Notes under the pieces: generated by a model
The model's database searches: none
Seen by the model: the letters and a program-made list of their open reading frames with translations, nothing else
What the model was told of the DNA's origin: nothing
IMG/VR virus record: IMGVR_UViG_2939521961_000009
Length of the DNA: 64,000 nucleotides
Strand: one strand, 5' to 3'
From: a virus
Taxonomy: Duplodnaviria > Heunggongvirae > Uroviricota > Caudoviricetes
Made by a program: the position numbers and the translations under genes
Shown: piece by piece, positions 4,313 to 22,592 of the stretch
How the letters are laid out: each line of letters begins with the position of its first letter
How positions within the stretch are numbered: position 1 is the first letter of the stretch

Positions 4313-4378
4313 TGCCATTATGCAAGCCTCACAATTGAGGTGTACTGGCAATAGCGGACACTACCATTTGTTCTTTTT

Positions 4379-5197
4379 TTAAGCAGCCATCTGATGATAT
4401 TTTTCCCTGAAGGCTGCCGGGGAGATATTCCCCAGACGAGAGTGACGACGCTGACGATTGTAGAAAATCTCAATGTATTCCCGTATTACTGAGATGGCTT
4501 CATCCCGGTTATTAAAACGATAGTGGCTCAGGCTCTCATTTTTCAGCGTTCCCCAGAAGCTTTCCATCGGAGCGTTGTCGTAACAGTTACCTTTACGCGA
4601 CATTGATGTTTTCAGACCAAACTGCTCCTGTATGACCCGGTAATCGTATGCGCAGTACTGTGAACCTCGATCAGAGTGGTGGATTAGCCCGGCAGGTGGG
4701 CGCTGGCTCCTGAGCGCCATAAACAGAGCTTTACCTGTCAGCTCTTTTGTCATGCGCTCTCCCATGGCGTAGCCGACAATTTCGCACGTATAAACATCTT
4801 TGATGCCAGCGAGGTACAACCATCCCTCCTGTGTGGCAACATACGTCAGGTCCGCCACCCAGACCTGATTTGGTGCTGTAGGAGCGAACGTCTGGTTCAG
4901 CAGATTTGGCGCAACTGGCAGATTGTGGTTCGAGTTCGTAGTCGCTCTGAACTTGCGTTTCTGCTTACAGCGTAGCCTTAGCTCCTTACGAAGACGTGCC
5001 AGTCGGTCACGACCAACGATGATGCCATTCTCTGCCAGCTCCGTCTGGAGCCGCCGGGTTCCATATGTTTCGCGAGTGCGGATATGTGCCACCTTAATCT
5101 CCAGTTTTAGCCGCTCATCACTTTGTTTTCTGTCTGAGGGTTCATGCTGTACCCAGTTGTAATAACCGCTCCTGGATACACCAAATACCTGACACAT
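4379..5197 (-). CDS. IS3-family transposase OrfB (DDE catalytic domain), 272 aa
   Basis: ORF translation; expressed as OrfAB fusion by -1 frameshift in IS3 family. Confidence 0.9.
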   Translation of the reverse strand: MCQVFGVSRSGYYNWVQHEPSDRKQSDERLKLEIKVAHIRTRETYGTRRLQTELAENGIIVGRDRLARLRKELRLRCKQKRKFRATTNSNHNLPVAPNLLNQTFAPTAPNQVWVADLTYVATQEGWLYLAGIKDVYTCEIVGYAMGERMTKELTGKALFMALRSQRPPAGLIHHSDRGSQYCAYDYRVIQEQFGLKTSMSRKGNCYDNAPMESFWGTLKNESLSHYRFNNRDEAISVIREYIEIFYNRQRRHSRLGNISPAAFREKYHQMAA

Positions 5198-5232
5198 CGC
5201 TTCAATGGGAAATTGTTGTCGCCATTGTTCGA

Positions 5233-5535
5233 TTAACGCGTATTTTTCAGCGACTCCTGTGCAAAATACGCTGTTGCTTTTTTTAATATATCTCGCTCAA
5301 GGCGAGCTTCATTTAACGCCTTACGCAGTTGCAGAATTTCAGATTCCAGTTCAGCCACCGTGCGGGAACCAGGAGTACCGAGCCCTTTTCTGGCGGCGGT
5401 AACCCATTGTCCTAAAGTGCCTTCAGGAAGAGATAATCGGGAAGCGCCTTCACTGATCGAAAGTTGATTTTCAAGAACCGTTCTGACAGCTTCGGCTTTG
5501 AACTCTTTAGAGTAACGTTGGGTTTTTCTGCTCAT
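5233..5535 (-). CDS. IS3-family transposase OrfA (HTH), 100 aa
   Basis: ORF translation; slippery A-rich run near its 3' end. Confidence 0.9.
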   Translation of the reverse strand: MSRKTQRYSKEFKAEAVRTVLENQLSISEGASRLSLPEGTLGQWVTAARKGLGTPGSRTVAELESEILQLRKALNEARLERDILKKATAYFAQESLKNTR

Positions 5536-5596
5536 TATTAGCTCCTTCTGATGCCATTCTATTTCAGGAAGGAGTGTCCGTTAAACTCAGGCTACC

Positions 5597-20923: not shown

Positions 20924-21168
20924 TGAGTTTTACCGGCACTTCTTCTGCACTGGTTCCGGCATCTGCCCAGACAACCCCGACCAGCGGCTCAGAGCCGCTG
21001 TTAGTCAGCTGAACTTTTCCTGACTTCAGATAAACCTTCTTACCCGTTTTCATGTCATCCGTTTTCAGCTTAGGCAGCATAAACACACCTTCGGTTATGC
21101 CGTCTGAGGTAGCCTGAGTTTAACGGACACTCCTTCCTGAAATAGAATGGCATCAGAAGGAGCTAATA

Positions 21169-21471
21169 ATGAGCAGAAAAACCCAACGTTACTCTAAAGA
21201 GTTCAAAGCCGAAGCTGTCAGAACGGTTCTTGAAAATCAACTTTCGATCAGTGAAGGCGCTTCCCGATTATCTCTTCCTGAAGGCACTTTAGGACAATGG
21301 GTTACCGCCGCCAGAAAAGGGCTCGGTACTCCTGGTTCCCGCACGGTGGCTGAACTGGAATCTGAAATTCTGCAACTGCGTAAGGCGTTAAATGAAGCTC
21401 GCCTTGAGCGAGATATATTAAAAAAAGCAACAGCGTATTTTGCACAGGAGTCGCTGAAAAATACGCGTTAA
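21169..21471 (+). CDS. IS3-family transposase OrfA
   Basis: Protein identical to copy 1 OrfA. Confidence 0.9.
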   Translation: MSRKTQRYSKEFKAEAVRTVLENQLSISEGASRLSLPEGTLGQWVTAARKGLGTPGSRTVAELESEILQLRKALNEARLERDILKKATAYFAQESLKNTR

Positions 21472-21506
21472 TCGAACAATGGCGACAACAATTTCCCATT
21501 GAAGCG

Positions 21507-22325
21507 ATGTGTCAGGTATTTGGTGTATCCAGGAGCGGTTATTACAACTGGGTACAGCATGAACCCTCAGACAGAAAACAAAGTGATGAGCGGCTAAAAC
21601 TGGAGATTAAGGTGGCACATATCCGCACTCGCGAAACATATGGAACCCGGCGGCTCCAGACGGAGCTGGCAGAGAATGGCATCATCGTTGGTCGTGACCG
21701 ACTGGCACGTCTTCGTAAGGAGCTAAGGCTACGCTGTAAGCAGAAACGCAAGTTCAGAGCGACTACGAACTCGAACCACAATCTGCCAGTTGCGCCAAAT
21801 CTGCTGAACCAGACGTTCGCTCCTACAGCACCAAATCAGGTCTGGGTGGCGGACCTGACGTATGTTGCCACACAGGAGGGATGGTTGTACCTCGCTGGCA
21901 TCAAAGATGTTTATACGTGCGAAATTGTCGGCTACGCCATGGGAGAGCGCATGACAAAAGAGCTGACAGGTAAAGCTCTGTTTATGGCGCTCAGGAGCCA
22001 GCGCCCACCTGCCGGGCTAATCCACCACTCTGATCGAGGTTCACAGTACTGCGCATACGATTACCGGGTCATACAGGAGCAGTTTGGTCTGAAAACATCA
22101 ATGTCGCGTAAAGGTAACTGTTACGACAACGCTCCGATGGAAAGCTTCTGGGGAACGCTGAAAAATGAGAGCCTGAGCCACTATCGTTTTAATAACCGGG
22201 ATGAAGCCATCTCAGTAATACGGGAATACATTGAGATTTTCTACAATCGTCAGCGTCGTCACTCTCGTCTGGGGAATATCTCCCCGGCAGCCTTCAGGGA
22301 AAAATATCATCAGATGGCTGCTTAA
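21507..22325 (+). CDS. IS3-family transposase OrfB
   Basis: Protein identical to copy 1 OrfB; -1 frame relative to orfA. Confidence 0.9.
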   Translation: MCQVFGVSRSGYYNWVQHEPSDRKQSDERLKLEIKVAHIRTRETYGTRRLQTELAENGIIVGRDRLARLRKELRLRCKQKRKFRATTNSNHNLPVAPNLLNQTFAPTAPNQVWVADLTYVATQEGWLYLAGIKDVYTCEIVGYAMGERMTKELTGKALFMALRSQRPPAGLIHHSDRGSQYCAYDYRVIQEQFGLKTSMSRKGNCYDNAPMESFWGTLKNESLSHYRFNNRDEAISVIREYIEIFYNRQRRHSRLGNISPAAFREKYHQMAA

Positions 22326-22592
22326 AAAAAGAACAAATGGTAGTGTCCGCTATTGCCAGTACACCTCAGTCGCCTGTTTCTCCCTGTGGAATATCGGTCA
22401 GCGCCACCGCAAAAACATCCCCCACCTGCACCAGATCTCCGCTGCTGATGGCTGCACTGGCAACAATCGCCACCGTTTTTCCTTCTTCTACAAAATTCTT
22501 TGCCATAACTGTCTCCGCACAGCCCCGTTCAGGGGCTGATTTCAGGTACAAAAAAAGCCCTTACGGGCCATCAGAGTTGTTGTCTGCGACGT

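Follow-up and report, generated by a model that had tools for sequence, protein, structure and literature searches.

Two inverted IS600 copies, probably independent simple insertions, around the tail genes of a Qin-locus lambdoid prophage

Two identical insertion sequences (ISs) in opposite orientation enclose the tail genes of a lambdoid prophage in the IMG/VR virus record IMGVR_UViG_2939521961_000009 (Caudoviricetes), a stretch of 64,000 nucleotides (nt) that is here called the window and whose positions are used throughout. A block of genes between inverted IS copies might be a composite transposon, an invertible segment or ordinary prophage DNA that was hit twice, and the locus raises the question of which of these it is and what became of the prophage. 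The evidence makes it very probable that two independent, simple transpositions of IS600 took place into a lambdoid prophage at the Qin locus (ydfJ) of an O26:H11-type Escherichia coli that produces Shiga toxin (STEC). A Mu-like prophage, the third mobile element, sits within the portal gene of that lambdoid prophage.

The IS600 copies and their insertion sites

A repeat search of positions 1–30000 of the window returned one inverted repeat pair, with arms at 4336–5599 (copy 1) and 21105–22368 (copy 2). The arms are 1264 nt long, 100% complementary and separated by 15,505 nt, and a script comparison found copy 1 to be the exact reverse complement of copy 2. A perfect repeat of this length is far beyond chance. 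Over 1264 nt both copies are 100% identical to elements that many E. coli genomes carry under the RefSeq annotation 'IS3-like element IS600 family transposase', and an IS600 on a Shigella boydii plasmid is 99.4% identical over the same length. The element is identified by these matches as IS600, of the IS3 family, and the repeat search and the annotated copies together bear out the original prediction of two identical, inverted, IS600-like elements of 1264 base pairs (bp). IS600 was first described in Shigella sonnei and has been amplified in STEC O26, O121 and others.

Both copies have the complete anatomy of an IS3-family element. In copy 1, on the minus strand, orfA lies at 5233–5535 and orfB at 4379–5197; in copy 2, on the plus strand, the same genes occupy 21169–21471 and 21507–22325. 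The transposase genes of copy 1 thus run in the direction of the late operon and those of copy 2 run against it. OrfA (100 amino acids, aa) carries the Pfam domain HTH_Tnp_1, and OrfB (272 aa) carries HTH_21, rve, rve_2 and rve_3. A slippery A7G run at 21420–21427 would allow a −1 shift that joins the two frames, on translation, into a 385-aa OrfAB with no internal stop; 385 aa is also the length of the joined OrfAB called in another genome, and the RefSeq annotation of IS600 records a 'programmed frameshift'. The element begins TGAGGTAGCC... and finishes ...GTACACCTCA, with imperfect inverted repeats (TGAGGT.../...ACCTCA) that match at 19 of the first 27 positions, and its ends have the 5'-TG...CA-3' form of the IS3 family. 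Because of this complete anatomy and the identity to annotated IS600, both copies are judged intact and presumably active.

Direct reading of the flanks shows that each copy stands between its own pair of 3-bp duplications. Copy 1 is flanked by AAT at 4333–4335 and 5600–5602 (...CACAAT / IS / AATATAG...) and copy 2 by GTC at 21102–21104 and 22369–22371 (...GCCGTC / IS / GTCGCCT...). A duplication of the same length flanks a further IS600, in strain 10153 (TCT/TCT). Since each copy in the window carries its own 3-bp duplication, the two are read as independent simple insertions.

This reading was compared with uninterrupted relatives. Pre-insertion junctions of 1400 nt each, built by deleting the IS and one copy of its duplication, were found at 100% identity over their full length in O26:H11 strain 11368 and in many other genomes. 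Direct alignment of the window with 11368 gave zero mismatches over 1–4335, 5603–21104 and 22369–25931, with one orientation throughout. Such collinearity again argues for simple insertions, and it shows that the intervening 15.5 kilobases (kb) lie without net inversion. The original prediction had named the AAT and GTC duplications, had read both copies as simple insertions between which no inversion had yet occurred, and had proposed alignment to an uninterrupted relative as a check; the flanks and the alignment with 11368, which confirms both pre-insertion junctions, agree with it on each count.

The same alignment bears on the possibility that the two IS600 copies and the tail module between them form a composite transposon, moved or mobile as one 18-kb unit. 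Inverted IS copies around a discrete module do recall the architecture of Tn5 and Tn10. However, neither a common outer duplication nor a new locus relative to IS-free relatives was found: the triplets at the two outer flanks are unlike, AAT to the left and GTC to the right; a direct duplication of its own flanks each IS; and the 15.5 kb occupy the same place and orientation, with zero mismatches, in genomes that lack one or both IS copies. A composite transposon is accordingly given almost no credence.

An assembly artefact, in which IS copies were misplaced or duplicated during repeat resolution, is only slightly more credible and is still very improbable. The element is multicopy, which makes repeat resolution prone to error: among 5,426 complete E. 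coli genomes in RefSeq, 3,487 contain some match to it and 1,614 contain a place where 80% or more of it is covered, with a median of 2 and a maximum of 43 IS600 places per genome. Against this, the junctions of copy 1 are identical in 14 independently assembled complete genomes, one junction of copy 2 recurs in an independent short-read assembly, and for each copy the 3-bp duplication is clean and the empty site has an exact counterpart.

Interrupted genes and the nested Mu-like prophage

Copy 1 lies at the boundary between the side tail fibre gene stf and the tail fibre assembly gene tfaQ. In 11368, stf has 986 codons and ends ...NYIVRLA*, and its TAA stop shares one base with the ATG of tfaQ (TAATG). 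In the window, stf (5597–8545, minus strand) has 982 codons on translation and ends ...NYI*, the stop being the terminal TCA of the IS (5597–5599), which on the minus strand is the TGA with which the IS end opens. The four codons lost from the end of the gene (VRLA) now stand at 4321–4332. The 11368 annotation and the translation thus confirm the earlier claim that stf lost four codons and that its overlap with tfa was split. The truncated protein retains Pfam matches to phage_tail_N, Phage_fiber_2 and Collar; this 982-aa protein is annotated in strain RM10386, and an exact look-up finds it in many assemblies. The tfaQ gene (3743–4318, minus strand; 191 codons, Caudo_TAP, N-terminus MAFRMSEQ...) is intact but lies 1267 nt further from stf and outside the IS-bracketed segment. 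A promoter and terminator scan across copy 1 gave no excess of sites over shuffled sequence. Lambda can do without side tail fibres, and lambda PaPa lacks them; copy 1 alone would therefore be expected to be non-lethal.

Two further features of these fibre genes were noted. Within stf, positions 6789–7184 hold three tandem 132-nt units with 100%, 76% and 62% identity to the first, and Pfam marks three Phage_fiber_2 repeat stretches in the protein. In O121:H19 genomes (strain RM8352, NZ_CP028110.1, 4901438–4908856, among them), an IS600 lies in the homologous tfa gene. It was considered as an insertion at the same site as copy 1 and rejected, as it lies in the 3' end of tfa between imperfect triplets (CCC/CTC) and represents an independent insertion.

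The neighbourhood of copy 1 might also suggest an invertible tail-fibre segment, comparable to the G segment of Mu or the P segment of e14, under the control of pinQ. This serine invertase gene (3055–3645, plus strand; Resolvase and HTH_7), located at the left end of the prophage and named pinQ in the 11368 annotation, is only 97 nt from tfaQ. The inverted repeats, however, are complete IS600 elements with transposase genes rather than 26-bp crossover sites. A search of 2400–8700 for crossover-type (pix/gix-type) inverted repeats gave only short, chance-like matches, with none of 14 nt or more between the pin–tfa spacer and stf, although degenerate sites may escape such a search. Neither the open reading frames (ORFs) of the window nor the 11368 annotation contains an alternative stf'/tfa' gene set, the single stf/tfa set being the only one. 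A Pin-type invertible segment is hence scarcely credible, and pinQ appears to be an orphan invertase, as it is in the Qin prophage of E. coli K-12.

Copy 2 interrupts a gene of 107 codons that matches Phage_cement_2 (PF09956, E = 2.7e-20) and the PHROG family phrog_122, 'head decoration' (E = 1.1e-46); what had been described as a small head gene can thus be named a head decoration, or cement, gene. The gene is split after codon 46. Its 5' fragment (22366–22506, minus strand) comprises codons 1–46 and then a TGA supplied directly by the IS, and its 3' fragment (20916–21104, minus strand) runs from the duplicated codon 46 to codon 107 and the stop. Together the fragments reassemble exactly into the 107-aa protein of 11368. 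As both ends of IS600 read TGA, the frames truncated by copy 1 and by copy 2 stop at once.

A different IS3-family end is present at the exact nucleotide of copy 2 (window position 22369) in a Logan contig of sample ERR14020411 (3100–3168). This end, TGAACCGCCCCGGGTTTCCTGGAGAGTGTT, is presumably of the IS629/IS1203 type. The sample is unrelated, and its prophage is 98.5% identical to that in the window. The shared nucleotide may point to an insertion hot spot.

The third insertion lies beyond copy 2. Past 25931, a position near codon 47 of the portal gene, the window no longer matches 11368. The portal 3' part occupies 24565–25931 (minus strand), and from 25932 to the end of the window at 64000 the sequence belongs to a transposable, Mu-like prophage on the minus strand, which is lodged in this gene at a distance of 3.5 kb from copy 2, on its right. 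Its genes include mom (26059–26796), MuB (60263–61195), MuA (61267–63357, with Mu-transpos_C) and the start of a repressor gene (from about 63791), together with com, a Gin-like recombinase, tail fibre and baseplate genes, Gam and Kil. Elsewhere, the same Mu-like phage, which begins 5'-TGTAACCAGG..., occurs at many unrelated chromosomal sites. In strain 142 it spans about 38.8 kb, and the left end of the nested copy is therefore estimated to lie about 0.77 kb past the end of the window.

The junction between the Mu-like prophage and the portal gene was absent from the complete RefSeq genomes searched. It creates a hybrid 466-aa portal ORF (24565–25965) whose start codon lies inside the Mu end, and this ORF was found in 179 blocks of public assemblies. 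The portal protein is indispensable for head assembly, and the Mu-like insertion would therefore be the most decisive of the three defects. With the portal and cement genes split and the side-fibre genes uncoupled, the prophage would no longer be able to build heads. The original prediction had held that the IS insertions make the prophage very likely defective; the defect itself is supported, whereas the stronger reason for it, a Mu-like prophage of about 38.8 kb that splits the portal gene, had been overlooked.

The remaining genes of the lambdoid prophage are arranged as in lambda. In the 11368 annotation the prophage lies at the ydfJ (Qin) locus, in the order ydfJ', ynfT, ydfK, pinQ, tfaQ, stf, lom, J, I, K, L, M, H, T, G, V, U and Z, and Z is followed by a 91-aa gene (PF13856), the 107-aa gene, a protease/capsid fusion, the portal gene and the terminase genes. 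Coordinates were transferred from this annotation to the window by offset from the zero-mismatch alignment, with support from ORFs, Pfam and PHROG. Apart from stf, the bracketed module in lambda order occupies 8610–20923. All of its genes lie on the minus strand: lom (8610–9209), J (9280–12693), I (12754–13401), K (13299–14042), L (14047–14745), M (14755–15084), H (15084–18149), T (18121–18450), G (18459–18845), V (18906–19649), U (19660–20061), Z (20058–20636) and the PF13856 gene in the position of FII (20648–20923). The lambda tail order Z-U-V-G-T-H-M-L-K-I-J-lom-stf-tfa is followed, and Pfam recognises Minor_tail_Z, Phage_tail_U, Phage_TTP, the GpJ domains and Ail_Lom. Beyond copy 2, the gene for a fusion of a ClpP-like prohead protease and the major capsid protein (22593–24620, minus strand) is intact.

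Between the IS copies there accordingly lie 62 codons from the 3' end of the cement gene, the gene in the FII position and Z through stf. The earlier description of the segment as the whole lambdoid tail module is correct for Z to stf; tfaQ, however, lies outside, and a fragment of a cement gene is included.

Distribution, order of events and rearrangement

The distribution of each insertion was assessed by searching the 5,426 complete RefSeq genomes with the IS and 600 nt on each side (2464 nt for copy 1). Copy 1 with identical flanks was recovered in one piece at 100% in 14 complete genomes, among them RM10386, 2014C-3057, 02E060 and War. For copy 2, IS600 adjoined neither flank in any of these genomes, and the best matches were to the IS alone. 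The copy 2 junction is present in GenBank CP027572.1 (GCA_003018515.1; about 2,353,960–2,417,959), which is evidently the window's own source and for which no publication was found in the literature. An exact-protein look-up showed the same order there as in the window, namely Mom, truncated portal, capsid, 46-aa cement fragment and IS600. The junction also occurs in a short-read contig of SRR3180475 that ends 27 nt inside IS600. The 46-aa cement fragment was found in 86 blocks of assemblies, a count that overstates the number of IS insertions because cuts at contig ends produce the same fragment: three of the six places shown are uninterrupted genes cut by the end of the contig (…GACGG). Copy 1 therefore marks a lineage, and copy 2, in the data searched, is confined to the source strain.

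The relative order of the insertions follows from these occurrences. In SRR24338812, one of the 179 blocks with the hybrid portal ORF, the Mu/portal junction is 100% identical to that in the window and the cement gene is intact at 107 aa; the Mu-like insertion therefore predates copy 2. Copy 1 landed first, at the stf/tfaQ boundary, and was inherited by a sublineage; copy 2 came later, into the cement gene, at a time when the Mu-like prophage already occupied the portal gene. The locus would thus record three successive, independent transpositions into one prophage. From what is known of IS911, IS3 and IS629, IS600 would be expected to move by the copy-out/paste-in route of the IS3 family, via a circular intermediate.

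As two identical inverted copies, the IS600 elements could serve as a substrate for RecA-dependent inversion of the intervening 15.5 kb. After an inversion the inner flanks would have changed places, and the triplets on the two sides of each IS would no longer agree; the matched triplets therefore identify the assembled sequence as the un-inverted isomer. It is conceivable that both isomers coexist in culture through RecA recombination and that the assembly displays the majority or ancestral form. The inverted repeats are 1264 nt long, 100% identical and just 15.5 kb apart, and strains 10153 and PV0838 show the region around copy 1 rearranging in relatives. The matching duplications of each copy and the collinearity with IS-free relatives point the other way, and no inverted isomer was found in the complete RefSeq genomes searched. 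Coexistence of the isomers is thus considered unlikely, if clearly less so than a composite or Pin-type origin of the segment. Short-read contigs are uninformative on this point because the short junction sequences are identical in both isomers.

No evidence that contradicts simple insertion was met. Three considerations nevertheless weigh against the account of two simple insertions into a prophage that has lost its function. First, the identity of IS600 was judged on copies annotated as IS600 and not on the ISfinder type sequence. Secondly, the loss of phage viability is inferred from sequence. Finally, the one assembled sequence may be compatible with earlier inversions, if they were even in number, or with a small share of inverted molecules in the culture. 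The preferred reading remains, with high confidence, that of two separate simple transpositions.

In 10153 (NZ_AP027191.1, 1939737–1949603) and PV0838, copy 1 keeps its stf flank, and on the other side, in place of the tfaQ flank, stands DNA from a different prophage, including a tail-fibre C-terminal gene, a DUF1076/NleG-like gene, nleA and the integrase of that prophage. The foreign flank in 10153 also ends in AAT. A second IS600 in 10153 was considered as the recombination partner and rejected, since it is a simple insertion between TCT triplets in the fibre gene of the other prophage. The reciprocal junction for the rearranged copy 1 was not found in 10153, where this one second IS600 was looked at.

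A second fate of copy 1 is seen in GCA_020648955.1 (ABDNDG010000027.1, 5915–5985; window 4318–5602), where IS600 is gone from between stf and tfaQ. The allele reads AACTATATT-TGAGG-CTTGCATAATG (ATT-TGAGG-CTTGC), is one G short of the intact allele and encodes an stf of 982 aa. This IS-less allele was found in nine contigs, that of GCA_020648955.1 and eight similar ones, and is exactly what would remain if a deletion had joined the TGAGG at the IS end to a TGAGG in the flank. The IS-excision enhancer (IEE) acts on IS3-family elements, is carried by STEC serotypes that include O26:H11, and is reported to promote excision of IS600 (PMC9397093); it has microhomology-mediated end-joining activity (PMC9943667). 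The one-G-short allele fits IEE-promoted excision, the alternative being a coincidental 1-nt deletion. Because STEC, including O26:H11, carry IEE, the damage done by the IS copies may be reversible or scar-forming.

The IS629/IS1203-type end at the copy 2 nucleotide in ERR14020411 has led to a further suggestion: that the cement-gene site after ...GGCGAC (codon 46) is a hot spot for IS3-family elements in lambdoid prophages and that the IS pair acts as a recurrent, partly reversible switch. The rearranged and scar-excised forms of copy 1 in relatives were counted toward this idea. If true, the switch would silence or reshuffle the morphogenesis genes of the prophage, rather than the locus having received two random hits. 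The suggestion is nonetheless judged highly unlikely, well below the coexistence of two isomers, and independent simple insertion is retained as the explanation for both copies.

Significance and comparison with known systems

All of the phenomena at this locus are already known, namely IS600 itself, amplification of IS3-family elements, prophage inactivation, IS-mediated rearrangement, IEE-promoted excision and the random insertion of Mu-like phages. It is established that prophages decay and strains diversify in STEC through insertions of IS600 and IS629, through IS-mediated rearrangements and through excision promoted by IEE, and the consequences of the present case reach little beyond strain-level genomics. 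The locus does illustrate how a prophage can be inactivated step by step when three mobile elements hit it independently. Copy 1, the junction of the Mu-like prophage in the portal gene and copy 2 form nested lineage markers with a possible use in typing, and the inverted IS pair can be expected to make assemblies ambiguous and to give rise to an inversion polymorphism of 15.5 kb.

Related prophages show further mobile-element damage or other arrangements. The right half of the prophage, with the early region, xis and int, is located past the Mu-like element and falls outside the window. In 11368 (NC_013361.1, 2164001–2184000), the same prophage has its xis gene split by ISCro1, of the IS66 family, and its int gene by another IS600, so that it is already excision-defective in a close relative; a second lambdoid prophage, with nleC, lies next to it in tandem. 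In RM10386 and GCA_020648955.1, the ynfT-ydfK-pinQ left end is preceded by phage xis and int genes and not by ydfJ', an attP-like or tandem-prophage arrangement unlike that of the window and of 11368.

The IS600 copies in the window do not differ structurally from known copies of the element; their insertion sites alone are particular. With Tn5 and Tn10 they share the arrangement of identical inverted ISs around a block of genes, and differ in that the block lies in its ancestral place and has not moved as a unit. Closer parallels are the lambdoid prophages of enterohaemorrhagic E. coli (EHEC) hit by IS629 or IS600, in which IS3-family elements disrupt late genes as they do here. An IS600 insertion and an IS-mediated deletion of 18 kb from the late region are reported for O26 Stx1 phages (PMC10042803), whereas the prophage in the window is a non-Stx prophage at the Qin locus. 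The nested element shares mom and com, a Gin-like recombinase, MuA, MuB, Gam, Kil, a repressor and a 5'-TG left end with the Mu-like (Sp18-type) prophages of EHEC, and differs from them in its position inside the portal gene of another prophage.

The nearest relative by position is the Qin prophage of E. coli K-12, which occupies the same locus and has the same left-end genes (ynfT, ydfK, pinQ and tfaQ) as the prophage in the window. As in Qin, the prophage of 11368 continues with lysis and cold-shock genes, relBE, hokD and dicB. The head and tail module has been lost from Qin in K-12, whereas the O26 prophage keeps a full head and tail module in lambda order, which in the window is interrupted by both IS600 copies and by the Mu-like element.

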